Part shown: positions 1-63,300 of the stretch, in pieces
Numbering within the stretch: the first letter of the stretch is position 1
Layout: each line of letters opens with the position of its first letter
Assembly (NCBI GenBank): GCA_036172245.1
Contig: JAYWIR010000003.1
Span: forward strand, 992,001-1,056,000
From: Raillietiella orientalis
Lineage: Eukaryota
Direction: 5' to 3'
DNA length: 64,000 bases
Program-made: the position numbers and the translations under genes
The notes under the pieces: generated by a model
What the model was told of the DNA's origin: nothing
Database searches by the model: none
Seen by the model: the letters and a program-made list of their open reading frames with translations, nothing else

Positions 1-600
1 GCCTTGAAAGACGCACGAAAATGGGCAACCCGTTTCCCGCCTCGACCTCCGACCGCGGATGCGGGAGAATCGACCCCAAGAACCTCCCCGGAAACGTGGA
101 TTTCCGGGCACGGGCAGGAGGACGCCTCACATCAGTGCTGCAAGGCTTCTTTACTCTTCGCGACGCGCGCACACCTCCTCCTATCGGCGGTCTTCGTCGG
201 ACGAAGCGCATCACGAAGCAGATACTGCGTCCGCAGTTTCCCTCGAGGAGAGGCAAACCATCAAGATGGACTACGTGCACGCCTCCCAGTGACGTGGTGC
301 CCCACGTGGAACGAAGGCATGCCCAGAGTGCACGCCACGGTCACTGCAACCGACGAACCACAAGCGAGACGGAGCACACCTACGAACAGTTTGGGGTTTG
401 CGAGTCCAGACGAGAGGTTCCGCTGGGAAGACGGCATCTACGGAAGCGCCTGGGCAAAGTGAAGCAGCAGCGCTCCATGGGTCAGCTGCGGGCTAAAGGG
501 CGCCGCTCTCGGGGAGCACAAGATCGCCAAGTCGGGAAGTCGACCCGACTTTGTTCGACCTATGGGGGGCACAGTGGGGAAACAATGGGTCCAAGTGGTA
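1..600 (+). mobile_element. Degenerate non-LTR retrotransposon relic (C-terminal part of reverse transcriptase ORF)
   Basis: Frameshifted fragments in expected order: GRIDPKNL (cf. GVxIDxKL), KQILRP..MDY (cf. IRxxLDYG), ARRSTPTNSL (cf. AFRSTPxxSL). Weak similarity, judged by eye. Confidence 0.35.
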
Positions 601-1296
601 AGGAAAGAAGTTGCGCACCACCACCACGGCTGTTCGAAGCGCGATCTCGTTAGGGAGAAGGAAAGGAGGCGCCGGCAAGAGTCTCTGCATCCTGTCGCCG
701 GGACGAGGACCTCTTCCCTATCGATTTGCATGCGCCACGCGGACGTTTTTTTTTTTCCTCCTTTTTTTTCCTTTTTTTGTTGTTTCCTTTTTTGCGTGCC
801 ATAGTCCATTCCACTTACACTGTACGCTGCTTACCTCTTGCGACGGCTTTGGCAGGACGGGCACCGAACTGCCAAGTGCGCTGGTTGATTGGCAGCTCTT
901 TTTACGTGATTTGTAGCACTCCACGGAAAGGCTACAAAGCAAAACAGAGTGAGAAGTCGCCCGGCAAAGCACTGGAAGACGTTCATTTCACACCAACGCA
1001 TTCTTCATCACGCAACTGTCAGAGAACGATGAATTAATATGCATTTGACACACAGCAAACAAATGGTATATATTAGTGAAAAATAGAATAAAAGCAAAAA
1101 ATATCTATAAAAGAAACTAAATCGTGATAAGAACGATTCTGTACCTTTTCTCAGCTACCTTTTGTTGCCTGATGACCTGTAAATGCATGTAACACAACCA
1201 ATATATTAACACATTACGAAAAATTCGAGAGATTTTTGTAAACAAGTACTCAATGATTTTATTTCTTTACTGAAACAGCGGCAATGAACTCTTGTT

Positions 1297-1560
1297 TATA
1301 CATATATATACATATATATATATATATACATACACACACATATATATACGTATACACATATACATACATACATAGGAACCAGCCATAAATGATTCTGAAG
1401 AAAGCTTTATACTCACCTGAGAGACATTAGAAAGCATAGGGCATAGCCCAAAATATGGCATCAAAGAAAATGTTTAATGTTCAACAACTAATTAGAATTT
1501 TTTTTTTATTTTTTTTTATTTTATTTTTTTTTTTTTTAAAAAAATTTTTTTTTTTTCTTT
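1297..1560. repeat. Compound TA/CA microsatellite and poly-T/A tract
   Basis: Visible directly at about 1297-1374 and 1498-1560. Confidence 0.9.
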
Positions 1561-1771
1561 CCTTCATGTAATCCCCATCCAACATTAACAAAAGAAATCA
1601 TTCCCTTAACAAACAGAATGGATTCAATGAACACAATTGAATTGCACAAAAAAACATTTTATTATTTCAGAGGGCTCGTACTTCAAGAAATGGCAAGAAC
1701 ATAGCCACGGGCATGAATCGTCAACGCATGCGCGGCGTGAGCCTACAGTCCAAGCACGATCGCAGCAGTAT

Positions 1772-7700: not shown

Positions 7701-9302
7701 TAAACACGCACTGATTCACGTATAAGCAAGTGGACCACAAAGAAATCGGAAAAGCTGTATTGTACAGATAGAAAGGCAGTTATGGAAGAATTTCAACAAG
7801 TCACACATACAACACGCAGGTAAGGGTAGCGCTCTCATACTGCCCGGAACTTTCGAGCCCCTGACCCTCATCCTAGCGATTTCGAAGCGCTGACGGTCGA
7901 GATTCGGGAAGGATGGGGAGGAGGGGGGAGGGGAACCAACCATCACTGTTTACAAGGCGTGAGCCACTCTTGGAACCAACTCTGTGAGATGCCTTTCATG
8001 TTTCTTCGAGTGCACAATACTCTCTATCGAACTACATAGACTCCCCCGTGCCTGCACGCCAGACGCAGAGGAGCAGACCGACGCAGGCGCAACCCACGGC
8101 AAAACCAATTCGGAATGCAAACACAATCAATAGGGAACGAAAGGAAAACCGACAGGAGCGTGGCTCCTACCGCGGCGTCAGCCCGAACTGGTTTGCCAAA
8201 AAAAAAAAAAGAGGAAAGAAAAAAAAAAAGGGGGGGGGGGAATAAACGGGGAATGAAAAATTCCGGACAATCAATCACGATCGGATTCCGGGAAAGAGAA
8301 TGGGCAGTTTTCGCCAGAAAAATAGGGGGGAAATGCTACTATGGTGCACCTCGTGAGGACCGTCGAAAATGAACCCAGCTCTCCAAACCTCAAAGTTCAT
8401 CACCATCGCGAAATCGAACTGATGCGCCCACAGATACAATTGAGACACACACACACACACACACATACGCATCCTACACTGCTAAAAAATCATTACGGAA
8501 AGGTAGTAAATACTTTTTATCTTTCATTAAAAAATACTTTAAATTCTTGCAAATGACTAAATACACGGATTTTCAAAACGCTTTTATGTACCACGAGCAG
8601 TAACCTCGCAAAGTACGTGGCTGATGTGAATCTGCAATCAAAAACTGAATTTTTGATGATAAATATGAGGCAACACAACAGATAAATCATCAAATTTACG
8701 TCCTTAAGATAAAAGGCGTGCGTTCATACCAACGGTGATCTTGTTTTGAGTTTCTCACGAACTGCACCTTCAATTGAATCTCCGTATAAACAGAACACAC
8801 ACACACACACATCCCATATATTACTTTCATATCCGACATGAACCAAACCATTCAACATGATTCTATTACTGAAAATGCATAAATTAAATCAGTTTTGAGG
8901 ATTCAGCTGAAACATGCTCATTCTACCAGTAAGTGTACAACAAAAAGAAATGTACGAAAAACGAAGACATTCAAAAATTTAACAAGAAAACATTTCTTTT
9001 AAAAGCAAAAAAGGCTGTAATGATGATGTATACACTTGAAACCTACAGTGCTCACATACATACCCCTGTTCCTCCATGACTTCTTCTAATTCCACACATC
9101 TAACTTCAATTTTCCGCTTTCTTTCATGATCCAAAATTTCTGGGTTTGGGGGTCTATATGTAACAGCATCTAGCTTTTTGATTTCTTCTTCTGTCTTATA
9201 ATTTACTTTTTCTTTATGCTTTCTAATAAATGACAGATTACGCTGCACATATCCATTTGTGCCTGAGCCCCTAGCAGTAGGCAATCCAATTCCATTATAC
9301 AT
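1772..9302 (-). CDS. SRRM2: SRRM2/SRm300 (cwf21-domain) splicing factor; exons 9064-9302, 7201-7308, 2054-2317, 1949-2005, 1776-1895; 3' end uncertain
   Basis: MYNGIGLPTARGSGTNGYVQRNLS, PNPEILDHERKRKIEVRC, FSQEEIERKIIAFREML..DEFGRPI, ESHQAAEAQQEKNNRLREALGI..FVDGSSFD, then Lys/Ser-rich tail. All junctions GT-AG and phase 2. Read-through of the last donor gives TAA at 1772-1774. Confidence 0.92.
4220..7100 (+). mobile_element. Degenerate LINE ORF2 relic (APE endonuclease + RT), antisense in SRRM2 intron 2
   Basis: Collinear eroded motifs: INWT..KLREVLAKDMLDLL (endonuclease N-terminus), VFGGDFQ at 4611 (GDFN), DSAHL (SDH), PEW, RIAI..FKHL, GETPQGTLL near 6445 (GVPQGS), YDYT (YADD). Many stops and frameshifts. 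Confidence 0.5.
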
Positions 9303-21985: not shown

Positions 21986-22232
21986 GTGTTTGGATCCATA
22001 TTGGTACTTATTGCCGAACACCACGTAAGCGCGCTGCCCCGTGTATTTGACTGTTCTTCTAGCAGCTTCAGTGGGATGCTGTGATAAACTATGCAGTGGT
22101 TCTCAGCACAGACAAAGCTGCTGATGTTGTGTTAATGAAATGTTGCACAGTAGTTGTTTTTGCCGTCTTTACGAAGAGGTGTTCAGATTTATGTGACAGG
22201 TGCTTATTGGAATTCCCGCTCTTGTAACTAAC

Positions 22233-23102
22233 ATGTTGCAACAGTTCTGCAACACCAGCATGAACCGCATGTTTTCGGTATACACGCAGAATATCATCAA
22301 CAAAAGTGTTTTCAAAACAGAGCTTCTAGCCGGTGAGCATAAAGGTATCTTTTCTCTGGGAATAAACAGAGCAGAAAGGAAGAATGCTATAAGCAAAGCA
22401 TTTGTGCAGGAAATGGACGATATTTTAGATGAAATTGAGTCGAACACTCAAGTGCACGTAGTTGTGTTGCATAGTGTGGTCCCCCAAATATTTTGTGCTG
22501 GTGCAGATTTGAAAGAACGTGAAGAAATGAAGATTAGTGATGTTGTCCCATTTGTTAGAAAACTGAGAAAACTCACTCTTAAACTCCAGCAACTGACACC
22601 TGTTACCATTGCTGCTATGGATGGCCATGCACTAGGAGGAGGACTGGAGCTTGCTATGTCTTGTGATTTGTTAATCTGTGCCTCAGATATCAGACTGGGG
22701 TTAGTCGAAACCAGTCTAGGTATATTTCCTGGTGCAGGGGGCTGTGCAAGAATGTCCCGCCTCATTGGATCACTGAAAGCTAAGGAATTGGTTTTGACTG
22801 CAGAAGTGTTTAATGGCGAGAAAGCAGAAAAGTTGGGTTTAGTGAACCGTGCAGTTTCTCAGAATAGTGAAGGAAATGCTGCTTTCCAAGCAGCTCTCTC
22901 TTTGGCAAAAAAGATTACAGCGAATGCTTTAATGGCTACTAAATTAGCCAAGTTTGTTCTCAATCATGGTTATGATATAGATTTGAAAACAGCATTGGCA
23001 TTAGAAGAGGCAGCCTATTCTTCTACTGTTTTTTCGAAGGATCGTTCTGAAGCTTTGAAAGCCTTCAAAGAAAAACGCCCTCCAATCTTTACAGGAGAAT
23101 AA
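22233..23102 (+). CDS. AUH: Crotonase-family enoyl-CoA hydratase, AUH (methylglutaconyl-CoA hydratase)/ECHDC2-like; intronless CDS
   Basis: GINRAERKNAISK, FCAGADLKER, AAMDGHALGGGLELAMSCD, GLVETSLGIFPGAGG, AFKEKRPPIFTGE; both catalytic Glu present; first ATG at 22233. Confidence 0.88.
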   Translation: MLQQFCNTSMNRMFSVYTQNIINKSVFKTELLAGEHKGIFSLGINRAERKNAISKAFVQEMDDILDEIESNTQVHVVVLHSVVPQIFCAGADLKEREEMKISDVVPFVRKLRKLTLKLQQLTPVTIAAMDGHALGGGLELAMSCDLLICASDIRLGLVETSLGIFPGAGGCARMSRLIGSLKAKELVLTAEVFNGEKAEKLGLVNRAVSQNSEGNAAFQAALSLAKKITANALMATKLAKFVLNHGYDIDLKTALALEEAAYSSTVFSKDRSEALKAFKEKRPPIFTGE

Positions 23103-35099: not shown

Positions 35100-36600
35100 G
35101 AACTGAAGAGGCAACTGCAAAGAGACTGAAGCCAGGACACGCCGAGCCTTTCATTGACCCGTTCGGTCTTGACTTTAGGTGATGGATCTGCCTTTGCTTG
35201 CCTTCTTTCCTGTACTCTCAAGGCTGAACTAGAAAGAATTGTGGCAGTGGTGGCGGTTGCCTGGCACCTCCAGTTCTCCAGACCGTTACAGTTTCTTCCT
35301 CTGTCGACGCTTGTATGAAAACTCAGTGAATCCCTGGAAAGTGGTGGCTGTGGAAGAATGGATCCGATCCCTCGCGACGACTTTTCGCTTTTTCAAGAGA
35401 TCCGTTACGTTTGCGCCTGTCCTCCTTTCGCATGCATGCATCCCACATGCTGCAAGGAAATCCCGTTCGCAAACCACCGTCCACCATCAGCTGTATGGAC
35501 GAAGAAACTGTTGTTTTTTTCTTGAATTCCCCGTCTGGCATCTTCCAGTTTCCGAAAAGTCCCCTTCGGACACCGACAGCCAGAGATCTTCCTCTTCTCT
35601 TCTTCCTCACCCAGTGCTGCCTCCCAGTCCAATATGCATATGAGAAAATACCTTCTTCCCACTAACAGATGCTTCCTGCAGGGAAAAGTTTGCAGTTTCC
35701 ACAAAAAGGATTGTGCAGAAGATTGTAAGTGGACCAGGAAGCGCTTAGCCGTTTAGCCGGTCCTCTCAAGCCTGAGGAAGGTGCACCAGGAGCGATGTAG
35801 CTCGAAACTCCTTCCCGTCGCCTTTCCTCATCCCCATCCTTCCCTTTTCCTCTAAGTTCCCATCCCCTTCTTACTCCCTGCAGTGCAAGCCGAGCACTCT
35901 TCCAGCCTTTTCTGGAAGTCCGGATATCCTTCCCCCGATGAGAATTCAAGGTACTAAAGAGGGAGGGAGTACCGTAGAAGCTCGCAAATCACGATCCTCT
36001 CCCGCCTCCGACTTACTGCTCGGGAGGAGACTCGGGAGGAGCGGGTGAGACTTGTTCGAGGGTTTTTCCTTTACCGCAGGCTTCCTCCTCTGCCGTTTCC
36101 GGCTCTTTCGCGTACCCCTACCTTCCCCGACACGCTTCCTGGAGTGCTCGGGTTCCCGTAAGCCTCGTCCGGGATCTCCTGGAAGACAGGGAGACATCTG
36201 CCTCTTCCATCCATGGGGGAGAGGAGGAAGAGAGAAGCGGGATTCACAGCCAGCGCCTTCTGGGATGAGTATTCCCGAGGGGCCCCTCCTCTACCCCAAG
36301 GGATCTTGCGCGGAACGCAGAGCAGGTAAGAATGGTAACGTCCGCAGCCTGAAGACCCGTGAAAGAGCGACCTGATCTCCATCCGAGAGACAGAGGGTAC
36401 CCACCCTCAGCTCCCATGACGTCCAGACACGGCGAGTTTCCAACCTCTCTCTCCCCCTCCCTCTCATCCCGTTCTCCGCCGGCTCTCCTTGTGGGAAGAG
36501 GACGCGACGAGGGCGGCAGGCCTGCGCACCGTCTCCCCCTTCGCCAGCCGAAAGCAGCGCCAAGGGAGAGGGGCGTTCTGCCACCATCCTGCAATCTGAT
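35100..36600 (-). mobile_element. Degenerate LINE ORF2 relic; inverted homolog of 36800-38300
   Basis: Reverse complement aligns patchily to the + strand relic on the right (coordinate sums about 73340-73400, e.g. 36110-36165 vs 37177-37234 and 35945-36000 vs 37343-37398). Confidence 0.5.
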
Positions 36601-36799
36601 CGACTCTGGAGAAGGAGGAGAGGAGTCTCCATCCATCGTCTTCGATCCACGGCAGGATCTTGACCTGGGAACATGTGGGGCACGGCTTGGCGTATCTCTC
36701 CCTCCTCCTCCATCATCAGCCACTTTGCACTTCCTCTACTCATGCGGAGGTAAAAAATTCCCAAACCTGGGCATGTAACCCTCCGGAAATCACCCCTAG

Positions 36800-38600
36800 G
36801 GAGAGTCATGGAAACTGTTTCCACTGCAGAGAGTTGCGTTCTCTCGAGGAAGGAGGCAGAGACGGCGCAGTACTGTGTGTGGAAGGGACCCATGATGTGT
36901 GGAAGGCAGTCACCGGGAATAGCTCTCCGCCTAGCAGCCACCGGGCCAGGGAAGCGGGAAACAAGCGAAGGTTCTCTTCCCATGCCTCTCCTTCCATTGG
37001 GAAGTAGGTGAGGACCATTCCGTTTTTCCCACCGTTGTCCTTTTGCTCACCCTCATTCTGATCCTGCTGAATCCCAGCGCGCTTCGGTGGCACTGAGAGG
37101 CACCAAGGCACGCCCTCGAAGTCAGAGGTCAGCCCGAAGCCTGAGCAGGAAAAGTCGAGTCGAGGGACCTTCGCAGCAGAGTAGGGAAACCGGGCGATTG
37201 AGGAAGCTCGGGTGATCGGGGGTGGATGCACGCTGCTGGCCTCCTGTGGCGAGTTCCTCAAGGGAACGGCGCTCCCTTCTCCCCGTCGCCGTAGTTCATC
37301 CTCCTCAGCCAGCGACTTCGAAGAAAGGGAAGGAGGATAGAAGGGAATGGGTCGTCCGGCTCACTTCCGCCTTCCTTCCCTCCCTTTGGTCCTCATTCTT
37401 GCTTCCTTCCTCCCCTTCTCTCTAGGGGATCGCTCCATCCCGTGCTTTGGTTTGCCCAGGACCTGCGAGCGAATTCGCGGAGGGCGTCCCGTCGAGGGAG
37501 CAAACCGGATCTTCTGAAGGAAACGAGAGAAAAAAGGAGGAGGAGAGCGAGAGATCACCTTGGTCACGTCTCAGGGGAGGACCTACTGTCTCGAGCGACG
37601 GGAGCCGTTCGAGTTCGCGGCTCCGGAAGCAGAGCCTCCGACCTACCCGACGACGATAATATCAGGGAGTCCACCAGGTCTACCGACGCAGAGGTCTCCT
37701 CCCTATGGGTACTTTGCAGGATGCAAAACAGCCGTAAAGCGAGCAAGCTGCATCCGAGAGACGCACAGGGATGATTTACCACCTCAGTGCCTCCCGTCTT
37801 CAGGATGGAACTTTCCTTCTTGACGAGATAGGAAGGAGCGCGTGGAAACTGAGATGGTCCTAAGCGACTCTCACCCATTCAGCCTCCGTGCTCTTCGAGG
37901 ATCCATGGATGCGTTCTTGATGGTTATTGGGCGCCAGAGCCTCTTTTCAAAGAGGCCACAACTTGCCGCTTCCCGTTTCCTCCCACGGTAAGTCCATTAC
38001 TTTGACGGCCTATCATCTACCTCCACCTTTTTGCGAAGTGCGGATTCAAGAAACAGAGGCAACAACAAAACGGTGGTACCTCCACTCCAAGCTGTTGGAT
38101 CGCGGCGCCTCGAGCAGACGTGCTCCTGAACCTTAAACCGCCACCTGAAAAGTTTCTTCCGTCTCGTCCTGGTACAGGAAAGGCTTCTGGTCATTCCTGC
38201 TTCGATAGTTCGGCACCACCGACTGATGCGGGCGGGGTTGGGATGAGCGTCAACCACTCGGCACGCGCGCTCAGAGGAACGTTGTGGAACCGGAGAACAG
38301 AAGCAGCAAGAAAAGAACGTCCCTGGGTATCGGAAAAACGAGGGCAGGGGGGCGGGAGGCACGCCGATCCCTACGTATTGTTTGTGTCGCTTTCCCGTTT
38401 GTGGAAGACACCTGCCCCACGTTGCGAAGTCCGCCAAAGGGAAGAAAGAATGAAAAGCGCGAGCGACGCTTCTGTCGGAGACACGACTGATTGCGTGACA
38501 CATTCCCGAACGACCTCAAGGAGCTCCCAGGTCTGTGAACTCCTGAAGGGAGCAACTAGAAATCCTAGTAGGGACGCTGTCTGATCCAGGCATGATTTCA
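36800..38600 (+). mobile_element. Degenerate LINE ORF2 relic (endonuclease, linker, start of RT)
   Basis: ORF 38120-38584: SAPPTDAGGVGMSVNH..LWNR..PW..DPYVLFVSLSRLWKT..GDTTDC resembles SAPGPDGI..MLKH..LFN..WK..YRPISL..K..STTD; upstream GRPAHF..LVLILAS resembles PTxF..IDLTLxS. Confidence 0.5.
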
Positions 38601-38705
38601 ACCACGTGTTGTTGACAAGAATGGCGGAAGGAAGCGTTCGAATACGCCGCCTGTTAAGGACATCAATCAGAGTAGGGGAGACTAAGTAGGAAAACGCTTG
38701 ACAAT

Positions 38706-38776
38706 ACACACACACACACACACACACATGTATATGAAAATATATGTATGTATGTATGTGTGTGTGTGTATACACA
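38706..38776. repeat. (CA)n/(TATG)n/(TG)n microsatellite
   Basis: Visible directly. Confidence 0.9.
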
Positions 38777-39099
38777 TATAAACATGCATCCCCTCTGACA
38801 ATTTCTTTATTTGGCTCATGTAAAACTGGGTTTAAATAAGACTTCCACGCACTGGGATTCCTTGCGGGCTGCTGCAGTCTCGGCTCTCACAGTAAACCTG
38901 GAAACATACAGTGCATTTAGTTTTCGCAGGTGTTTTTCGAAAGAAAATAAAATGCATTGCTGTTTTTTTTTTTAAAAAAAGAACAAAGGTGCATTTCACA
39001 AACCGAGAGGAGTGTAAGAGTTAAGGTGAGTAAACAGACAGCACCGTATGGGAGCTAGAAGTTCGTATTCCTGTAACCTCGAACTGAGCCCATCAAACA

Positions 39100-39900
39100 T
39101 TTCCGGGAACCAGACGGCTAGAAATCGCCAAACGCTCGCAGGCTAAGCTGGAAGTCGCGAGCGCGCCCTCCGCACACGGTGGCAGTTGGTCTCTTTCGTA
39201 CCACTTCGGTGCTGAAGGTTTTCGTACTGGGGGCAAATGGTTTCTTGCGATCGTCTCCCGCCTCACATTCCGTAACCGGGAGAGCTGGGAAGCCCCCCCC
39301 CCCCCCCAAATCTCCCGCCGATCCGCGGAACACAGGAAAAGAAAAAACCAACAACTCAAACCGATGATGTCAACAAACCCTTCGCAGAGACGCCGGTCTC
39401 GCTGGGGGGAACTACCGCAGGGGGACGTTTCTGAAGAAACGAAAGCAAAAGTTTTTTTCCCTTCTTCAGAGGTGGAAACAGCGGGAAGCAGGATTGGTGG
39501 ATGAGAAAAACGCTAAAGAGGGAGGAGGAGAAGAGTGAGAGGATGACGCTGGGGAGGGTAAGGCGTCGAAAGATCTGCTAACGTATGTCCGCGCCTCATA
39601 CGAGTCAAGTACTCCGGCCAACGCTCGGGAAACATCCGAAGATGGGGTGCGAGGGGAGGGAGGGAACAAGTGTTCCCCTGCCCCTCCCTCCCCTTCCTCC
39701 CCCGGGTTTCACGAATTCGCCCAGGATGCGCTCGCCAAACTCGTGGATCACGTGATTCGAGAAGGCACGTTTTGCGTTCGTCCCTGCGGGCGTCGTTCCG
39801 ATTTCCCGAAGGAGGGAACGAGCCCTCGCACCAGCGAAGGGAAAGTGCGGATGACGGCGGCGCATTGGGGGGGGCGTTCGTTTCCGTTGGGAAGCAGATC
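39100..39900 (+). mobile_element. Degenerate LINE RT relic
   Basis: WQLVSFVPL (cf. WKxxxIVPL), YVRASYES (cf. DxxKAYDS), LVDHVIREGTFCVR..RS (cf. IxSFLxxRxFxVR). Confidence 0.3.
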
Positions 39901-39945
39901 TTGGAGGTTGCGGAGGCAGGGAAGGGTTGGACGCATTGATATCAT

Positions 39946-41442
39946 TCACTCCCACAAATGAATACCTAAGCAAACCAGAAGAAGATATTCCAACAGGAAG
40001 TACAGCAAGTACATCAAGACGAGCAGAACAAACTGCACCTGCAAAGGAAAAGGCAGTGGTCGTCTCTCCGGAATGTTCCTCCTCCTTCGAACTTACGTGA
40101 TTCAGGAGCGGACTGCTCGGAATCTGCGTGGAAACCGCGGTCGTGGATGAGGTCGACTGGGTCGAGAGGGTAACGTTGCACGAAGAGGAGTCTGTTTCCT
40201 CCTCGGGGATAGAGACCGTCACATCCACCACGGTTACGTCCGTCTCCAGGCTGGTGGGGCTTTCTGTGACCTCGGAGGAGGCTTCGGTGAGCTCCAGCGT
40301 AGAGTCCGCAGCCACGCCATCCGTGGAGGCGGCGGTCTGCTTGGTCGCGGCGGCTTCCTCCTCCAAGGAAGAAGCCACCGCCGTGCCCAGACCCGTCAGC
40401 GAGTCAGAGGAAGGGATTTTCGTAGCCGCCGGAACCCGGGACACCGTCGTGGGGGTCGCGGACCCGACGTCCTCGGTCTTGTAGTTGTGGGAAGGACCCC
40501 CCGTTTCATTTGTCTTCGAAGTGATCTTCTCCGTGCTGGGGACGCTCCTCTGGGAGTCCGGCGTCTCGAAGACCGTGAGGGGCAGGTTCTCCGAACTCGT
40601 GCCGAGACCCTTCCTATCGATTTCTTGGTCGGTGGAGGATTCCGTCGTTTCTTCCGCTCGCTCTGGTGTGAGAGGATCCTGTTGTCTGGGGTAGAACGGA
40701 TGCTGCGGATCGCTTCTCCACTTCCCCATCAGTGGTGAGGGCTTGGGCTCAGTCTGCAGCTGCCGCTGCTCCGGAGAGGGCTGTTGGATGGTCGGCAAGA
40801 AATCGGAGAGGGTTTCCGAGTAAAACTTGCGCTCCTTGGTCACCCCGTGCCCCTCGAGCGTGTCGTTGGCACGGCTGGCATCCTCGACGGAGTGCGCTTC
40901 CAGCTTCCGGAGGGTAGTGGAGTTGGAACCAGCCTCCACGGGAGATCCGCCCGCCCTTCTCGGCAGGATGCTACTTTCCTTCCTCCTTGAGGATCGACCC
41001 GGAGATTTCGCGGACTCTCTGGGCGTAACATCGCTTTGGTTCGCGTTCTTCCTGGAATCGGAGGTTCCGGTTCCCTCCAGCGTCCCAGGGAGATATCCCT
41101 CCTTGGAGGTGGAAGGAACCTTTCTTTCTGGGTCCGCCAAAGACCTGAGAAGTTTGTTCCACGCCAGCTGAACCTGAGGGACGGGAGTCGGCGAGTTCTT
41201 GTCCTCCGTCGAGGCTGAGGAGGCGCTCTTCTCTCTCGTTCCGGGAGGCGGAGGTCGCCTCGGGGGCCTCCCCCTCGCCGACGCACCCTCCCAGTTCGCG
41301 TCCGAATGGAACAGTTCCGTGGATTCTGGGTCTCCTCCAATGCCTGCCGGCGTGAAACTTCGAGTCATCTTCATCTTGCTTGCCTTCTTCGTGGCGTGCG
41401 TGATCCCCGCAGCATCTCCTCTGAATCCCGTGTGAAGGTGTG
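39946..41442 (-). CDS. Mucin-like Ser/Thr/Glu/Pro-rich protein with hydrophobic C-terminus; last two exons 40097-41442 and 39946-40038; 5' exons not resolved
   Basis: About 1.35 kb stop-free low-complexity frame; strong donor CAC|GTAAGT at 40096 and acceptor ccttttcctttgcag at 40039 give in-frame VQFVLLVLMYLLYFLLEYLLLVCLGIHLWE-stop. Confidence 0.65.
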
Positions 41443-41544
41443 CTGATGTGAGAAAACAACGTGATTACTTATTTGTTTATTTTTTTTTTTCGTTTTTTCC
41501 GCCCGTGGGATCGTGGTTTCGCCCTCAGGCAACCCTCTCCGAAC

Positions 41545-42882
41545 AGCGGCATCCCCCGTGGAGGGAACGTTTCACATGGTTCCCGTGACAACGCGAGTTT
41601 TCGCGGGGGGACTTTGCTCTTCGAATCCAGGTTGGGAGAGAGAAGCCTGGGGCGCAAGCTTCTCTCGTAGGGACTCGTGTTGTCGGTGTTCTCGGTGTTG
41701 GCACACCTCGAACGCCCCAGCCCGCTCGTCACGGAGACCCATCACTCCCTCTCGTGCTGCCCCGCCGCCGCCGCCGCGCCCTCCCGGCATCATCCGTGGC
41801 TGTGGTCGCCTCTATGAGGATGACAGTGGTGGCGAGAGCGAGTTTCTGTGGAAGATGATCCTCGTCGGCGGGATCTCGAACGACCCGAGGAACTCGAGGG
41901 GAGAAGGAAAAAGGAGCAAAAAAAAAACAAAGAGAAGAAGAAAAAAAACACCTACTCGATTGCTCATCGCTCAGAGCTGGTCCTTGGAACAGGAAGAGGT
42001 ACCATAGGAACAACTGAAGATTCATTTTCCCGGAGCCTTCGCGCGCAGTGGTGATTGGTTCGCAATAGAGAATCACAGAACAGCTTTCCGCGTGAAGATA
42101 ACGATGCTCATGGTGCTCTGGGTGCCTTTCTCATTATATGCATAATGAGCGTTTATGCCAGGAATCATTTTCTATTGGTCCGACGATTCACGTCATAAGT
42201 GCACATGCCAGATCTGCATCCTAACAGGGCAACAAAAAAAAATAAAAAGAAAAGAAAAGAAAAAGGAAAAAAATAAAAAGGAAAATGAAACACCAAACAA
42301 ACAATCCATTCCGAAAGCATAAATTACGAATGCGGAAACAGAATGGCGAGTGTTTAACAATGGTACAGAGTATCGCACATGTGGAAGAGTCTGCGTGGAA
42401 AGGAGGATGTCAGCACAGCCTCTCACTGGGATCCTTACTTCAAGTGAAGCGGACAGCAGCTAAGGTGTGCGGCCCGCGGCCATCACTTGCTTGGGCACTG
42501 GGCGCTCCTTTTTCCTTTTCTTCCGTTCGCTCCTTTTTGCGGCCCAAGAAAAGGCTAAAATCGGCTCCAGGCGGGATGGGTGGTCACACAGGAAAGGCAG
42601 CAGTATCTTCGAAAGTCATGTACGGCGGAGCCGATCAAAATCCTGAACAATCATTAAAAAAGGCAACAAACATGTAGACTTATTCTACATAGATTGATAC
42701 ACATATTTACTTTAACATGCATAGTTATTCATATTAACAAGCCGAGTCGTCTGCGGTCCATGCGAGAAAGGCTTGCGCCCGCAGGTCTTCTCTTCCAGCC
42801 CGGATTCGAGCCGCAAAACTCTCCTGCGAAACTCCCGTTGCCGCGGAAATCACCAGAAAGATCCTCCATGGGGAATGTCGCA
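41545..42882. repeat. Two diverged ~130-bp copies in inverted orientation (41545-41675 and 42755-42882); possibly SINE-like
   Basis: Minus strand gagaagcttgcgccccaggcttctctctcccaacctggattcga..cgcgaaaactcgcgttgtcacgg matches plus strand gaaaggcttgcgcccgcaggtcttctcttccagcccggattcga..tgcgaaactcccgttgccgcgg; B-box-like TCGAATCC in both. Confidence 0.75.
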
Positions 42883-43007
42883 TAGAGATTTACTCACCTG
42901 CATATTTTGAACAGCAATATTACCGGAACGGATACATTTATTTAGATTCAGAGACGCACATTCTATTAATATAATTAAGAAGCTATCGATTATATTCTTG
43001 ATATGTA

Positions 43008-43933
43008 CGAGGGACATATCGAAAGTAAGAGCCTATCGGATACAAAGAAAGAACAAATGAAACAAAACTGTGCTGGTGGCTCTGAAAACACGCATCCTGG
43101 TGTCATTTTTCTACGTGGTCACCATTCTTTTCCAAACAGTTTTGATTCCGTGGAGGAAGCTTTTTGAGACCCTCTGCATCAAATTCCTCCTCCTGTGGGT
43201 TCAGCCGGTTCAGCAGCACTGCAGTTTTCAATTCCTCCCCTTCCCCCTCGCATCCTCGAGCCACTTCTTGAGGTGCAGGAAGACGTGGTGGTCACTGGGT
43301 GCGAGGTCGGAAAGGTAAGATCCAAAAGTTCCCATTCCCATTTCCGAATTGTCTGGGATGTGTGGACAGCATGTGTTGCCAAGGCGCGTGTTGTCGTGGA
43401 GGAGAACAAGTCTTTCCTGATCTCAGCATCCCACATCGTCGGTTCTGAGCGGCACGCCGCAGTGTTGAAAGTGTTTCTGCACAGTAGACTTGCACACAGT
43501 AGATGCTTGTTCCAGGATCCGTAAAGTCCACCAAAAGCACACACACCCTTTCGGTCCCACACACATGCCGTCCTCACATTCCAGACAATTCGAATATTCG
43601 AATGGGAACTTTTTGATCTTACCGTTCCGACCTCGCACCCAGTGACCACCACGTCTTCCTGCACCTCAAGAAGTGGCTCGAGGATGCGAGGGGGAAGGGG
43701 AGGAATTGAAAACTGCAGTGCTGCTGAACCGGCTGAACCCACAGGAGGAGGAATTTGATGCAGAGGGTTCCAAAAAGCTTCATCCACGGGATCAAAACTG
43801 TTTGGAAAAGAATGGTGACCACGTAGAAAAATGACATGTCGACGCATGTTTTTAAAACCGCCAACACAGTTTTGTTTCTCTCATTTGTTCTTTCCTTGTA
43901 TCCGATCGGCTCTTACTTTCGAGATGCTACTCG
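43008..43933. mobile_element. Non-autonomous mariner fold-back element (926 bp) built from two 3' ends; TA target duplication
   Basis: TA|CGAGGG left end, CTCG|TA right end; arms 43008-43376 and 43561-43933; each arm encodes the decayed transposase C-terminus (right arm YRSDLAPSDHHVFLHLKKWL..CLEKNGDHVEK-stop, cf. YSPDLAPSD); spacer encodes WDRKGV..LLVDF..TLRRAAQNRRCGML on the minus strand. Confidence 0.93.
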
Positions 43934-43949
43934 TAAGACACGAAAAGTG

Positions 43950-44770
43950 ATGCCTGCATTGTGGATGCAAATGCTGCAACAAGCTGTTACTATCCTCTGT
44001 TTCCACGAGGAGGCTGAGAAGCACTTCCCTGTGTGTGGTGGTGTGCAGTGTGGAAGGCAGCTGAAATCTTGAGCCTAGCAACTGCTCTGTGACTCAGCGA
44101 CTGCTTACAACGCGCCTCCAGCTCATATCCTCGGTTCAGCTCACAGACGCTAAGCGACTCCGCAAGTTTACTACGAAAAGGAATTTTGCCCCTGGGGTGA
44201 GTTGCTGACAATTCTTCGGGATCATGTGGCCCCCAACGTTCTTGGACAGTCGCACCCTTCCTTTCGAGCGGCGGGAGTCGGCGCTTTTACCGTTGCACTG
44301 GGACCTCCTGTGTAACCCCCGTCGACATCGTTGCACCCAGGCGGGGTGGGGGTGCGCACCCGAATGGCAGCAGGTGCGAGCAACAAGAATCTCTCCCTCA
44401 CCTGCTCGTGGGCTGCTTAGCGTCGCCCGCACCGTTGCGGGAATATCTTGCTTGGTCGACCCCCTTCCGGACCGCATGTGGCAACCTCAGGGACGCACGG
44501 GAACCTCTCCTCGCGCGCGCGCAAAGCACTGCCGCCGGCTGCATCCCCAGCAGCTCTTTGCTGCCTACGCGGCATCATGGCAGCCTGGAGCGGCTCCGAG
44601 AGACCGCGCTAGGGACATCATCCTCTTTGCCCTGTTTTTTTTTGTGGAGGGCAACGAGATGGTTCCACCTGGAGAAAACTGTTGGAGAACTTGCCGGTAT
44701 CCTCGAGGAGATGCAGAGGATGCCCCCCGCCCTCCCTTCCATCAGGCTGTGATCCATTACTGTGCCCCCC
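43950..44770 (+). mobile_element. LINE 3' end relic, copy A (CCHC knuckle)
   Basis: HPNGSRCEQQESLPHLLVGC; nucleotide direct repeat of about 45700-46060 (catccccagcagc.ctttgctgc..agatggt.ccacctgga..aacttgccgg.atcct). Confidence 0.6.
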
Positions 44771-44999
44771 AGAGTTATGGATATTTATATTTACATTTTT
44801 TTTATTTCGTTTTCTCCCATCCTCTCTGCTGTGTAGGACACCCTTCCCCTGGTCTGGGCGCCGAACACTCGGCAAGCCATGTTTATGCCAGGACTTGATG
44901 AGATCAGTGGCCCTACCATTTTTTAATGCTGTTTTTTTTTTGCAACAAACGTCCCCGGAGATCCCGGACGCAAATTCAACCTCACCTTCGACGCCCTAT

Positions 45000-46070
45000 C
45001 CGCCATCTTCACGCCGGACCTCGTACCCAACTGCCCCTGCAACATCCTCTCTTCACAGCTCCTCCAACTCTTCCTCGTCGGATCCGAACTCTCCCGTGGC
45101 CTCCTGAACAGCGTTCCGCTTCTCAAAAGGGTGTCCACGATGTCCCCGAGGGATCTTTGATCCCCAAAGACTCGCCGCCGGCATGTCCCCGATACGGGCT
45201 ACTGATGGCTCCATGAACTCGCCGAGAGCCGAAGGACCAAGTCTCTTGAGAATAGGTCGGCTCATTTCGGGGCATCCGGTTGACCTTGCGGTCCTCGGAA
45301 GGCGAGTGCCGCAAGCGGCTTGGGTCGCCTGTCTCCCGAGACGGGCGACCAGCGCCGCGTTCGTCCTCGGAACCTCCGCGAAAGGGCCATCCGCGCCACG
45401 GCTGACAGGATGAGAAGCGCTTTTTTCTTCCACGGGAGTGCGCGTGAGACGAATCGGAACTGGACCACCTCTGCCTCGCTCGTGGAGATAGGTAAATGGT
45501 CCTGGGTCACACACAACTTCTGAAGGCGTTTCAAGGTGCCATGTAGACGCCCGTGGGGTCCTCTATTGAAACCCCGCTCTCTCGCAAAAGGGGAGCAACC
45601 TATATACTGTTTTCGCCGCCGGGAGGGTTTGGAACCGCGTCCGTGCAGTCACCAGATACCGTGAGACACGCACCTCGACCACGATAGGAGAACCCGCTGG
45701 TCTCACTGGATCCGGAGGCTGTGGACCCCAACTGTTGCAAGTACGGGGAATGGGAATCCCTCCCACATCTGCTCATAGACTGTCGCCCACCTACTCCTGT
45801 GGTTGTCCTTGGCGCACCCACGGACAATCCCAAAGGCACCTCTTCGTGAGGGACGCCCTTTCGCCTGGCTCATCCCCAGCAGCCCTTTGCTGCTGACTAA
45901 GCGAGATCGTGGCGGCCTGGAGCTACGCGGGAGGAGGACGGCGCAATAGGGACTCCATCGACTTCGCCCTGCGCTTCCTGCGGACGGCAGCAAGATGGTC
46001 CCACCTGGAACTTGCCGGCATCCTAGGAAGGATGCAGAAGACGCCCTCCAGAGGACAGCAGTACCCTCCC
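45000..46070 (+). mobile_element. LINE 3' end relic, copy B (RNase H-like start plus CCHC knuckle)
   Basis: IRATDGS (cf. IYTDGS), DPNCCKYGEWESLPHLLIDC, terminal ALRFLRTA; homologous to copy A. Confidence 0.6.
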
Positions 46071-46649
46071 GTGACTCCCAGATTTTTTTTTCATTATTGA
46101 TTTTTATTTAATTTTTGTTTGTTTGTTTGTTTCTCCGCTTCCGAGGCGAACCTCGCCAGTCTGCGTGCCGGTCACTCAACAGGTTCCCAACATTTTCGGA
46201 CGATGTAGGGTCGATGGCCCTACACATATACGTTTATTTTTTTTTTATAATAAAAGTCCCGATGTTACCGGGTGTTAAGCCGAGAGGAGAACCCCACGGT
46301 GAGGATGCGGCCGGACCTCCCTTCGGCGTCGCGATGCCAATCAGTTCCCCTCTCCCAGTGAGGGATGGATCCTTCTCCGCTAGGCGGAAGGGAGTCCGAC
46401 GCTGGCTGTGATTCCAGCTGGACCAGGCTGGCTCGAGGCGAAGATGAACTTAGTATAAAGTTTAAGTGCCGGCGGCGTCTCCCCCCCTCTGACGCAGCAT
46501 CCCAGCACGCCTGCAAGCCGCCATCAAATCCACGCACCTCGCTTTCTGACCCCATCCGGCTTTTCGGGATCCGCCATGAAAGCTCAGGTGTGAACCGGGA
46601 TCACGCTGTTAGCTCGCGCCATCAACGCCCGAGATGGCGCCCGGCTCTC

Positions 46650-49600
46650 CGCATCTGCGTCTAAGTGCGTACTTACTCGGAGATGGTCGGCAGCTGTCTT
46701 TTTCATTGCCCGCGTCAACGAACCCCAGAGCCATTCGGATTTTTATCGCTCGCGGAGGAAACCCGTCTGGAGGAACCCATCCCGGAAGCGGGAATGGACC
46801 ATAACAAACGCCGTGGGCATAAAACGGAAGAAATTTCCTTCTCTGCAAGCTGCGCGATGGCGCATCGTGGCTCGGTCTCCTGGAAGCGGGTGCGGAGCCG
46901 CTGCCGCCCGCCTACAGAGGCTGCAAGGACCACCTGCTTCTTTCCTCAGCTTTTTCCGAGCTGCTCCTCAAGAGAGGCTCCAGGAGATTTCTCTCCCTAC
47001 CTCTGCTGCTCTCAAAGGTCAGCCGCGAAGCGGCTGTCTAATCGCGCACGCACGCGCACGTTGCGCGCCTTCGTCCTTGGTAACGGGAATCCCGCGCGTC
47101 TGTCATTTTATTTTTATTTTATTTTTCCTCCTTCCAGTCCTCATCAACCGAAGCTGCAGCTCCAGGGTCCCGCGTCCGCAATGACCACTCCTTCTCGTAT
47201 CCATCGGTCCCTCCCTTCTTCCTCCTCCCCCTCCTCCTACGCACCACCCTCGTCACCGTCCCCTTTCTCGGAATCGGTGCTCTTCAGCCACAGCAGCAGG
47301 TCAGGTAGCGTGTGCCTCCAGAGCTTCCCCTGCTCAGGAACTCCAGGATTCGCAGCCTTCTCGCACTGGCTGAACAGGCTCACGGCCGCACTGAAGCCTC
47401 TCCGCCGAGTCAGATGGGTGGCAACGACCCCGGAATCGTCCCTCGCTTCTGTCGGCACCTCTTCACCGCAACTTCCCGATTCTTCCGAGGCGTCCACTCT
47501 CTGAGGCCGGTGTCCCCCCAGGTTGCCCCACCGAAGAGTGGCGCTGACTTCGGCGCCTCCTTCCTGGACGCCGAGCCAGACGCGGCCGCCTCGTCTAGGG
47601 CTCCAGCCGTATCGCTACGCACCGACCCTTTCCCAGCCGGTTCTGTCGCGACCACCGAGACACGAAATCTGCCGGACGACGATGGGTGCTGCACCGCGTC
47701 TACTCCGCGCATACAGTCCGGGCCTCTCGGGAGAAATGGCCACGCACTAGTTGGGATGCCTTAAAGAAGAGGCAATCTAGAGGGTGAGAGGGGGAGGTGA
47801 GCACGCGGCTGCGATGTCGGACCGATCTGGTTTACGGGGGACCGCCTGCTCCTTCCAGGACGGAGGAGCGCGCGAGTCCCCTCCATACGAGCAGCTCCGC
47901 GGGGAAGTGAGTGGCGAAGATCCAATCTGCTCATCCTCCTTCCTCACACCCCGATGCGACGGAAAAAGGTCTGGTGCCGGACTTCTGTGCGCTGGAACCT
48001 TTCGGGTCTCATCCGCAAGTGGGGTGTGGGAAGAGGGACCACCCCAACAGCCGCACAATCAAACTACCCCCTCCGACCTCATCCTCTTGAGAAGGCCGCA
48101 ACGAAGAAGATGCCTCCGGCGTGTGTCCCGGGAGCGCTGCATGCTGAAGCACGTCATCTCTTCGCCAATCCTAAGGGCATTCGGTCTTCTCAACAGCATC
48201 TCTTCGCCGTTCGTGACGAAAGCTCCTGCTGCTGCGAGCACTCCTTTGGAAGCAGAGACAAGCAACACGGTGTCTGCCGAGGATACCAAAGAGCAACAGC
48301 GAACTGACCCGGGGGGGCTAGGTCAAGGAAGGGGGACTTTAGGCAGCCTGCTCGACCAGGAGCCTTCGAGGAAGGCGACCCGTGGGCTTGGTCCCGTGTC
48401 CACGGTCTCTTAGCACCCGTGACTCACCGGAGAGGAAAGCAACAGCAGCAACGGCTTTGGAGCTTCGGAGAAGCCGACGGATGACGGGTAGCAGTCCGCT
48501 TCCTGGTTTGCTCTTATAGTCGACGCAGCCTCGTGGACGACCTTCGCACTCGATCTCCCTGAATCCTTTCCTTCCCCCTTTTGCATAACAGATCTCACCT
48601 GCTTCCTTACGGAGAGCAGCTGGACTCTCCTATCGGTGTCCAGAGTTCAGAATTTCTGGGATCTCACTCTTAAGAATCACCACCAGCATGAGCAGTAGTA
48701 TGAAGCTCCCTTTGCCTGGGGAACATTCGTGGAAAGCGTTTGACCTATGCCCTGTCCCACCGCACAAGCACACGGATGACCCATCGCTCCTCCCCCCTTT
48801 CCCTGGGATCCTCTGCCTGAAAGAGGGGCAAATCCGAGAGAGGATGTCGTCTTCAAGAGACGGACAAGTCGCCGCAGCCTCCAGCTGAGGGCCTACCTCC
48901 TTTTCTCGGCCCAATTCAAGTTTCTCCCACCCCCGACCAAGGATCCGACTCCCCGATGCGGGATCTTTCCTGCGCCCCACCCTGTGGTTCCTGACGGCAG
49001 TCCACGGGCAGTCGACGCTCCCGAAAAAGGAAGTGCTGCCCGCGTCGGAGGCCTTGTGGTTTAGGCTTCCGCGTGTGGTACCACGCGTCGCGGGTTCGAA
49101 TACTTCGGCAGATAACTGACGCCACTGTGTCGTTTAGGTTCCGAGTTTCTCCTGCAAGATGGCGCTGGTTGGCCGAGACATTCGGGCGTGGCCCCCCGGC
49201 GGTGGATAAAGCCGGAGGCCTCCCGATGAAGGCCGGAACAATGGGAGTCGACCTTCGGGTCCTCCCAGGAATCAAGGAGTGGGGAGTTCCCCCTCCTGTC
49301 GTGCAACGGAGAGCGGACCCCCGTCACCGGGGGACCACCTCCGGTTTCAAGATGGAGCAGGAGCCCTCAGGGGCACCTCTCCAGTTGTTCAAAGGAGCGG
49401 ACCCCCCCTGTTGCGGGGGGGACCCTCCGAGTCGTCGCCTCTTCACAGAGTGCAAGGAAGCAAGCGAGAGCGATTCCCCTGCGGGAAGCTGCAGCGCCCC
49501 TTCTGAGTTTCGGAAGCGTCCCTTCGGGTTCTCTTCAGAGGAGTGAATAAAGGAGCGGTCCCTTGCGGGTTCCCTCCGGAGAAGAAATTCCTAGAAGCGG

Positions 49601-60351: not shown

Positions 60352-63300
60352 TTAATTCAATGATCCCCTGCAACAAGGAGCTCCACACAAACATGAAATT
60401 TTCTCCTCTTCTAAAGGAAACTTATAATCATAAGTAATTTCTTCATTAATACCAATTGGCTGCTTGGAATAAATGACAATTTTTTTCTGACCTTCAACAG
60501 TTACAACTTTAGCATAGCAGTTTGGCTAAAAAAGAAAAAAAAAAAAGGCAAAACATTGAATTCATGCAAAAAAAAAAGAGAGAGAGAGGAAAAAAAGGCT
60601 CACATTGCAGCTATGGTTAATGAACCTGGCCAAATTTCCACAACGTGTGGCATCTATGATGGCATCTGTGTCGACACGAAACAAGTAAGAGCTACCAATG
60701 CCTAATTTTTCATATTGTTTTTCTCGAAGATCTGCTACCACTGGGCGAACCATCTGACCCACATACTCAATGACCATCTCATCAGCAGCAATTGGCTCCA
60801 AAGCAAACAAGCCCCAGTCATGGATACCAGAACGTGAAAATTTCAAGTGCTTTTTCCTGAACTGTATAAAAAAAAAACTATGCTGCTGAACTTAGCTGCA
60901 AATACCAACAAACCTTAAGCTGGTTGAATTTCAAAAGATCACTATCAGTTTCATTGCCAAATGCAGCTAGCAAACGACGCTGGTTACTTCGTGCCTCTCG
61001 AAACATTGCTTGCACTGTTTTGGAAACATCCAGGGTATTGGATGGCGGTTGCATGGCAGCTTCCATAGCTGAATGTGCATAGCGATGCTGAAAAGGTTGG
61101 TTGACGCATTAATCCCAGACATAAAAAGAGAAATACCCGGAAACGCGCTTTTTCCAAGGAGCTCAACTGGTAGAAGCCTTCTGTTCGAGCACAGCCAGAT
61201 TCATGGATTCGGATGCCTTCATGTTTCCTTTTTTTTTGTGGAGTGCGCACATCAGTGAATGGCACAATTAAGGAAGCAATTAGCATTTCTAAAAACAAGC
61301 AAAAACGCAAAGGATATTTGGATGATCCACCCAATGAGTGTCATTAAGCCAATAACTGTTCTCATCATCGGCCAGCAAAGTTTCGTAACTTCTCTGCAAA
61401 AATGCCACATCTTCAGCATCAATACCACGTGCCAGGAATTCAAATAAAATGGCCATTTCCTGAACCAGTGTTCTTTTGAGAAACAAAGTCTTAGCACCAG
61501 AAGAGCTAGAAGCTGGCCGCCGTCCATATTTGTGATCATGGCTGGAAATAGCTTTTTCAGGAAGGAATGGCTTTTCTGCATCTTCCACGACCACTGCATT
61601 TTCTTGCTTATTAGAAGGTATACAATAGCCATGGTCCAGTAGAGCTGGAGCCGATTTCTTGCGGCCCTTGATCTCATTTGCTGAAGCAAAGTAAAGACAC
61701 AAAGGACTTATCAAATGCTAACCGGACAAATGATTGCCTAACTCCTCGACAGCCGCAGTTGCAGTACCAGGAGTTGGCCATGATGACATTGCTGCCTCCT
61801 CTGTGTCACAAATAGGACTGGGTTGTCTAGCATTGTAACTATTGCTTGCTGAACTGTCAGATATCTCATCATCGGATTCTGGAGATGATGTAGCAGCTGT
61901 AGGATCTAATGAGAATAAACTTATGACTAAACATCAGTATCACCTTCCTCTTCTTCAATATCACTCTCCACAACTGGTTTGCTAGCTTCTGTGTCTTCAA
62001 CTGCCTCGGGCAATGCCACAGATGTATCTTGCTCATTATCACTCTCTTCCATATCAGGCCAGGAATCCTCATCTATGTGAAGTGGGGAAGGAGATCGACG
62101 TTTGATCTTCTTCTGTTAATACATAGCAAATCGTGAACAGCGCATACATATTCCAGTTTACCCTAAAGGACGGCAGTTTAGGTAAAGAGGCACGAAAACC
62201 AAGACGAAAATTTTCGAAGTTATAGCATTCTACTCCCAGCTGGTCACGTGCTTCTAAGAGCAAAGACAATGAATTGAATTCCTGCTTAGCTGGTTTTTCC
62301 AACGTGGCTCCCGGATCCGTCTCCTGCAAATGGGTCTAAAAAGCCCATTAAATATGCGAGAATTGAACCTTGAATTGCCTCAAGTTGTCATCCCACCAAT
62401 TCTCAAAGCATTTGAAAGCTGTGTTCTCGATCATCTTCTTGCTGAAGTCCTTCTTGAGAATCTGCTTAAGCTCTGCTATGATTTGCGTTATCACCAAGCT
62501 GGCAGCATACAATCAACCCAGTGCCAGTGCACCATCCCACTTACTTTACAGTATCACATTTGGATTCATCATCAACACTGTCAGGATAGGAGTGAGGAGG
62601 TGGATAACGTGGCACTGCAACAGGGAAAGGAGGATAAGCATGCTGGGAATACACGGGAAACTGATTTGAGATGTTGGAATAGAAAGGGTACATTGGTCTT
62701 CCGGAGAGCACAGGAGAATAATACCACCCATAAACTCCAGAAGGGGGAGGGAGCATGTATGGAGGGGGGCGGAAATAATTGACAGGATGAAAAGGTGATG
62801 GAAGACCTGAAGGAACTGGCAGATGTGCATACCCTGCATAACCAGTACAACCATTGGAGGTCTGATCTAAGGGCATGCCAGTTTGAGGAGGGCTGGAAGT
62901 TAGAATCTTTTCCTCTCCTGAGCTCAGACTAGACAAAGACATGCAGTCGTCTTCCGAGACGCAGCTAGCTTTCTCAGAATTTGTTTGCTCAGAAGAGCTG
63001 CTCTCAGCATATGCTTCATGCTTGAGATCTTCAAAATGCCATCGGCGACGTTTTTGCTTTTGGATCTTCCTGCCAATCTCACGTCGCATGGAATCTTCAA
63101 TAGATTTGCAGGTCTGGATGTTTTTCAGCGCACTCTCCACATTGGCCAGAATCATCTCTGTTTCATGTTGATCCTGTTCTTTTAATTGCAAAATTCTGTC
63201 CTTGGTGAATTGATGCCATTTCAAATATAACTCGTGATTTAAAAAAGGAGATGGAGGATGACTAAGAGGTTCAGAATCCTGCTCAGCAGGCACACTATCC

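Follow-up and report, generated by a model that had tools for sequence, protein, structure and literature searches.

We consider it very probable that the window carries on its minus strand, at 61317-61259, a genuine 59-nucleotide (nt) intron of the U12-type (minor-spliceosome) class and AT-AT subtype, lying in the SETD1 orthologue of a small-intron, arthropod-like animal. The window is the whole 64-kb stretch analysed (contig JAYWIR010000003.1 of the Raillietiella orientalis assembly GCA_036172245.1, positions 992,001 to 1,056,000), and all coordinates refer to it. What is new is the SETD1 case, since the AT-AT subtype and minor introns in SETD1 genes are both already known. Three independent lines, RNA, homology and reading frame, place the splice, and the intron is best read as an ancestral AT-AC intron of SETD1 after a C-to-T change at its last base.

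The intron, its junction and its U12-type signals

Read directly from the minus strand, the 59-nt intron has AT at both ends, as in ...GAT CAT CCA A/ATATCCTTTGCG...GCTTCCTTAATTGTGCCAT/TC ACT GAT GTG..., where slashes mark the splice sites; with the motifs marked, the same stretch reads CCA A/ATATCCTTT...TTCCTTAAT TGTGCCAT/TC ACT GAT. The final base of the upstream exon is 61318, and the intron is phase 1. The features on which the argument turns are the following.

61318..61680, minus strand: upstream coding exon, N-SET region, phase 1 end (translation, Pfam N-SET PF11764 in homologues, tblastn, RNA contig at 61318-61478)
61259..61317, minus strand: probable U12-type intron with AT...AT termini, 59 nt (sequence, loose end of RNA contig record 2, orthologous introns)
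61309..61317, minus strand: 5' splice site ATATCCTTT, 9/9 to the published consensus RTATCCTTT
61267..61275, minus strand: putative branch-point sequence TTCCTTAAT, 9/9 to TTCCTTRAY, with candidate branch adenosines 61269 and 61268
61259..61260, minus strand: 3' terminal dinucleotide AT, the productive acceptor (sequence, RNA contig, frame)
61255..61256, minus strand: AC lying 4 nt downstream, which opens the conserved Thr codon ACT (its bases 1 and 2), with a frameshift if used as acceptor
61137..61258, minus strand: downstream coding exon, which completes an Ile codon and continues with TD...KKRK...and the WIN motif GCARTEGFY at 61196-61170 (translation, orthologue alignment)
61229..61237, minus strand: A9 homopolymer within a Lys-rich stretch (read directly; the frame with A9 agrees with orthologues)
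61163..61165, minus strand: TGA met if the AC acceptor is used (join computed, frame checked by hand)

The positions that the sequence-only reading had given, for the junction, the AT, the AC and the A9 run, were all correct on re-reading. The upstream exon translates as an N-SET region ending in HWVDHP, followed by the first base, A, of the split codon, and the downstream exon as TD...KKRK...GCARTEGFY; joining them at the AT keeps the frame, as that reading had claimed, and leaves it open through the WIN motif. Its account of the AC site stood in part: splicing there does shift the frame and run into a stop, the TGA at 61165-61163, but this stop is not before the WIN motif, as had been stated, lying instead just 3' of the WIN nucleotides, and the motif is lost with the AC acceptor because the frame is shifted.

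Only one RNA run was found (X1, a metatranscriptome, with 0.07 of sampled words), from which three contigs were obtained, none of them extending over the intron, the A9 run or 61137-61245. One contig (record 2) aligned to window 61318-61478 with five differences in 161 letters (~97% identical), four of the five at third codon positions by our codon count. Past 61318, it continues with 13 letters, CGCACATCAGTGA (plus strand), that match window 61246-61258 at 13/13 and are not intron. The junction in record 2 is thus 61318/61258, at the AT acceptor, and it cannot slide because the bases flanking the two boundaries differ. Another contig of the same run (record 3) carries two spliced GT-AG joints in the SETD1 gene, and hence the contigs of run X1 derive from processed RNA.

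The conserved peptide leads to the same junction. After DHP, the next two residues are x-Thr in 67 of the 81 SETD1 homologues retrieved (x = P in 34, A in 20, V in 11, and I and L in one each), the remaining 14 being 11 read-through open reading frames (ORFs), two homologues without the motif and one that is different. In local alignments to eight orthologues, the product of the AT site scored 151-191 and that of the AC site, which loses the conserved x-Thr-Asp...Pro stretch, 58-66. Furthermore, none of the 855 stop-free in-frame joins around the site has GT-AG, GC-AG or AT-AC ends. RNA, homology and frame therefore all put the splice at 61318/61258, in agreement with the earlier proposal that the productive 3' end is AT rather than AC.

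Two kinds of in-frame join with other ends were rejected. A 29-nt AT-AG intron (61318/61288) and several AT-AA joins either have no branch motif or are too short, and both contradict the RNA contig.

Classification as U12-type was based on the published donor and branch consensi (RTATCCTTT and TTCCTTRAY; Alioto, 2007; PMC1635337), to which ATATCCTTT at 61317-61309 and TTCCTTAAT at 61275-61267 conform at every position. The combined pattern TATCCTT-N20-50-TCCTTRAY occurs once on both strands of the 64-kb window, with 0.04 occurrences expected and a match in 4 of 100 shuffles; by itself, ATATCCTT is not significant (three matches against 2.36 expected in the same window). Between the branch motif and the acceptor there is just TGTGCCAT, and no polypyrimidine tract is present or has room to be, since these 8 nt are all that separates the two. 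The candidate branch adenosines lie 9 nt (61268) and 10 nt (61269) from the final intron base, with the AC at 13-14 nt; spacings of 8-30 nt were accepted in the survey of Sheth et al. (2006; PMC1557818). The description of the element in the sequence-only reading as a very short U12-type intron is thus upheld by its donor and branch motifs, by orthologous U12-type introns (see below) and by the RNA junction, and removal of the 59-nt intron is predicted to depend on the minor spliceosome.

In the mechanism that we propose, the U11/U12 di-snRNP (small nuclear ribonucleoprotein) would recognise the donor ATATCCTTT together with the branch motif TTCCTTAAT, and the second step would join 61318 to 61258, just past the AT located 9-10 nt from the branch adenosine. 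The product, reading ...DHP-I-TD..., would share its frame with the WIN motif and the SET domain. As for the intron itself, it would be a minor intron (phase 1) that is ancient in the SETD1 family and ancestrally AT-AC; its last base would have changed here from C to T, with a branch-to-acceptor spacing shorter by 2 nt.

Several points weigh against assigning the element to the AT-AT subtype of U12-type introns. On the RNA side there is one contig of depth 2.8 with 13 letters beyond the junction, from an organism ~3% diverged from the window whose own intron sequence is unseen. The spacing of 9-10 nt lies on or under the lower limit of the 10-20 nt that reviews, including Turunen et al. (2013; PMC3584512), give as functional and is below their optimum of 11-13 nt, with a canonical AC available at 13-14 nt. 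An Rfam scan for small nuclear RNA genes, made on the 64-kb window only and at the gathering score, returned no match. Finally, the T at 61259 and the length of the A9 run have the assembly as their sole source.

Orthologous introns and the AT-AT subtype

A scan of metagenome contigs yielded 44 SETD1 loci, seven of which (L001-L003, L006, L014, L015 and L019) have an xATATCCTT donor at exactly the same codon position; the remaining 37 are intron-less at that position. The intron's 3' end falls within the fetched DNA in four of the seven (L002, L014, L015 and L019) and beyond it in L001, L003 and L006. All four readable introns have AC as their last two bases and interrupt a Val codon as G/TG, L014 and L015 being near-identical, and they carry the branch sequence CCTTAAC or CCTTGAC with the branch A located 11, 11, 11 and 14 nt from the final intron base by our count. 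Like the window intron, those of the arthropod-like loci (L002, L014/L015 and L019) are phase 1, occupy the same codon position, start with a ATATCCTT donor, have the branch motif near the 3' end and are followed by a Thr codon (ACN) 2 nt past the acceptor. They differ from it in ending in AC with a split Val codon (G/TG), whereas the window intron ends in AT and splits an Ile codon (A/TC), in the distance of the branch A from the end (11-14 nt versus 9 nt) and in length (about 250-830 nt where measurable versus 59 nt). Comparison of the orthologous intron, suggested in the sequence-only reading, has thus revealed a U12-type donor in 7 of 44 loci and AT-AC ends in 4/4 readable cases, and argues that the SETD1 intron is inherited.

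Traces of the same donor are also found in protein sequences. The 11 read-through ORFs among the 81 homologues continue after DHP with D-I-L or H-I-L, which correspond to G/ATATCCTT or C/ATATCCTT, and the same D-I-L or H-I-L read-through occurs in 5 of 16 shorter protein matches.

Many of the entries P0003-P0022, P0062, P0207, P0208, P0211, P0217 and P0218 are truncated U12-intron read-throughs (...DHP-DIL/HIL/YIL...) from cockroach/termite-type and other contigs. One of them, P0022 (source name Blattella germanica), reads into the intron and is without the Thr-Asp-to-WIN stretch of other orthologues. A separate group of loci (L010-L012, L016-L018, L020-L022, L024-L027, L029, L030 and L033-L039) has no U12 intron and reads ...DHP-x-TFF...PPPRKRRK..., with a GT-type donor after ...H-[LV]-TG, which points to a lineage that has lost the minor intron and has another one just upstream of the WIN motif.

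In mammals, SETD1A and SETD1B are recorded as minor-intron genes of human and mouse in supplementary file 1 of Olthof et al. (2019; PMC6717393) and the Minor Intron Database; that study gives the human SETD1A donor as CAA/ATATCCTGA (file 1), the mouse Setd1a branch sequence as TTTTCCTTAATG, and intron lengths (file 8) of 290 nt for SETD1A and 1450 nt for SETD1B in human and of 375 and 621 nt, respectively, in mouse. As tabulated, the human SETD1A donor is an AT-type U12 donor whose context, CAA/ATATCCT, has three exon bases identical to those in the window, and the mouse Setd1a branch contains the 9-mer TTCCTTAAT of the window intron, which at 59 nt differs from the mammalian SETD1A/SETD1B introns of 290-1450 nt. 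The human SETD1A protein presumably has Ile-Thr at the corresponding place, and this, together with the identical exon context, suggests that the mammalian SETD1 introns lie at the same residue.

AT-AT ends, which the sequence-only reading had called rare, are indeed a documented but uncommon subtype. Tables 2 and 3 of Sheth et al. (2006; PMC1557818) give six U12-type AT-AT introns in human and six in mouse; the same work reports switches between AT-AC and AT-AT ends in human and mouse for ERCC5, Gpaa1, Zc3hdc6 and Slc9a8, and no AT-AT introns in D. melanogaster, the sole arthropod that it analysed. The last base of the U12 acceptor is described as tolerating substitution, especially in AT-type introns (Alioto, 2007; PMC1635337), and AT-AT as the second commonest non-canonical ending among animal minor introns (Larue and Roy, 2023; PMC10639083). 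In a preprint on Physarum, AT-AT makes up 8% of non-canonical introns, most of which are U12-type. The window intron conforms to this subtype in combining a U12 donor and branch motif with an A-U 3' end that is a single-base change away from AT-AC. It stands apart from the AT-AT examples listed in the sources cited, none of which is SETD1, in being very short and in having its acceptor close to the branch site.

On this reading, an ancient minor intron of SETD1 would have persisted in a genome where introns have shrunk to about 40-80 nt, and the last base of such an intron could drift from C to U with the junction unmoved. The main practical value of the finding is correct annotation. Gene callers limited to GT-AG or AT-AC ends would truncate SETD1 before the WIN motif and the SET domain, and existing annotations commonly fail at the orthologous U12 intron, at least 11 of the 81 database homologues being read-through truncations. 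The intron may also serve as a natural test case in which the minor spliceosome would have to choose between a weak acceptor close to the branch site and, 4 nt further on, a canonical acceptor in a better position.

The downstream AC and other readings of the locus

The sequence-only reading had raised a regulated switch between productive splicing and nonsense-mediated decay (NMD), in which the minor spliceosome would alternate between the AT (productive) and the AC (premature stop at 61165-61163) and so set SETD1 output. We regard this as very unlikely, and no finding here demonstrates it. The AC is canonical and, at 13-14 nt from the branch A, within the published optimum of 11-13 nt, whereas the AT is at 9-10 nt; the AC-site frameshift and stop are confirmed; and choice of U12 3' splice sites is error-prone, with alternative 3' sites observed (Turunen et al., 2013; PMC3584512), even if the same review leaves undecided whether these reflect regulation or error. 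However, the AT-site junction is the only one seen, in one contig, and assembled contigs drop rare variants and so cannot show rare isoforms. Moreover, the AC opens the Thr codon that is retained in 67 of 81 orthologues, including orthologues without the intron, and because x-Thr is conserved every orthologue has an AC 4 nt past the acceptor position. The four readable AT-AC orthologues (L002, L014, L015 and L019) display exactly this arrangement, ...CAC/TG ACN. Given the conserved Thr codon and the presence of the same AC in AT-AC orthologues, the AC needs no regulatory explanation, and conservation of the alternative AC beyond coding constraint was not found among the 81 homologues and 44 loci.

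A system with some likeness to such a switch is known for U11-48K and U11/U12-65K, where a conserved tandem U12 donor-like element, the USSE (a splicing enhancer that binds U11 snRNP), activates a U2-type acceptor (Turunen et al., 2013; PMC3584512). As described there, that form of alternative splicing coupled to NMD resembles the proposed switch in tying unproductive splicing to minor-spliceosome recognition. It differs in its conserved extra element, of which we found none here, the alternative AC being instead a coding Thr codon.

Some use of the AC site is nonetheless mechanistically plausible, as the only productive acceptor ends in U and lies 9 nt from the branch A, with the frameshifting canonical AC at 13 nt. 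Assays in human cells by Dietrich and colleagues in 2001 reportedly found U to be the least active 3'-terminal base, and spacings below 10 nt are said to have activated alternative sites in the same work. That this leads to sizeable unproductive splicing of SETD1, or that the minor spliceosome of this animal obeys a spacing rule shorter than that of its human counterpart, appears to us unlikely, though worth entertaining. Were unproductive splicing to occur on that scale, the dosage of this histone H3 lysine 4 (H3K4) methyltransferase would depend on the 3'-site fidelity of the minor spliceosome.

We lend slightly less credence still than to the regulated switch to an ordinary AT-AC intron with the junction unchanged and the T at 61259 an assembly error, an improbable reading that draws on the AC ends of all four readable orthologous introns and on the fact that base 61259 is known from the assembly alone. 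The assembly nevertheless reads T; AT-AT introns are on record as a natural subtype, with frequent changes between AT-AT and AT-AC from one species to another, and by our estimate the prior probability of an error at exactly 61259 is far below that of a natural AT-AT intron.

It is extremely unlikely that the major (U2-type) spliceosome excises the segment, or that the segment stays unspliced, with the match to the U12 motifs being fortuitous. Such a reading can appeal to the fact that we infer minor-spliceosome dependence, but no GT/GC...AG pair keeps the frame, no polypyrimidine tract fits in 8 nt, and both motifs are matched at 9/9 where orthologues also carry U12-type signals; as for the unspliced form, read-through stops nine codons after the DHP codons, and intron-less RNA exists. 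The weakest alternative, also named in the sequence-only reading, combines the AC acceptor at 61256-61255 with a true A10 run to give an ordinary AT-AC intron and, even though assemblies commonly contain errors in the length of homopolymers and the AC stands at a suitable distance from the branch motif, it has a negligible chance of being correct and is excluded because RNA, homology and frame all place the splice at 61318/61258: the loose end of the RNA contig starts with TCAC, the very four bases that would be removed, and the peptide encoded would be without the conserved x-Thr-Asp...Pro stretch, scoring 58-66 versus 151-191.

The SETD1 gene around the intron and the rest of the window

The 81 SETD1 homologues came from a protein search with the upstream exon; many have the Pfam N-SET, RRM and SET domains, and those with a named source are mostly arthropod. 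The best showed 46-47% identity over 88% of the 120-amino-acid N-SET exon query, and the best metagenome locus covering most of the query showed 44%. Six homologues aligned to the window by tblastn placed SETD1's C-terminal half between about 63500 and 60355, and nine introns were read from the sequence together with this orthologue alignment.

62544-62499, minus strand: intron of 46 nt, GT-AG, inferred
62368-62324, minus strand: intron of 45 nt, GT-AG, inferred
62161-62113, minus strand: intron of 49 nt, GT-AG, RNA joint in contig record 3
61943-61906, minus strand: intron of 38 nt, GT-AG, RNA joint in contig record 3
61722-61681, minus strand: intron of 42 nt, GT-AG, inferred
61317-61259, minus strand: the intron under study, 59 nt, AT-AT, probably U12-type
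61136-61088, minus strand: next downstream intron, 49 nt, GT-AG, inferred from sequence and orthologue alignment
60913-60862, minus strand: intron of 52 nt, GT-AG, inferred
60603-60526, minus strand: intron of 78 nt, GT-AG, inferred

All nine introns in this 3' half of SETD1 (60526-62544, minus strand) are tiny, at 38-78 nt, and two of the GT-AG introns are confirmed by RNA. The source genome seems to be that of a small-intron animal lineage. A length of 59 nt is normal for SETD1 here, since its introns span 38-78 nt, and it also fits the published correlation, across species, between minor-intron length and major-intron length (Larue and Roy, 2023; PMC10639083).

Elsewhere in the window, the region 1-8000 has raised G+C content (48%), with a strong positive AT skew of 0.18 at 4001-8000, and contains several overlapping ORFs of 130-240 codons; a Pfam scan of three of these gave no match. 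A block at 36000-48000 stands out by its 53-59% G+C against 34-42% in the rest of the window. Long ORFs are numerous on both of its strands, among them a 619-codon Ser/Thr/Pro-rich frame at 39605-41464 (minus strand); a Pfam scan of four ORFs in the block gave no match, and no tandem repeats were found in it. On the plus strand, 22197-23102 is an uninterrupted ORF of 301 codons with a match to Pfam ECH_1 (E 1e-54); the database searched contains no close relative of it, and its best homologues there are mitochondrial methylglutaconyl-CoA hydratases (AUH) of animals, with ~50% identity.

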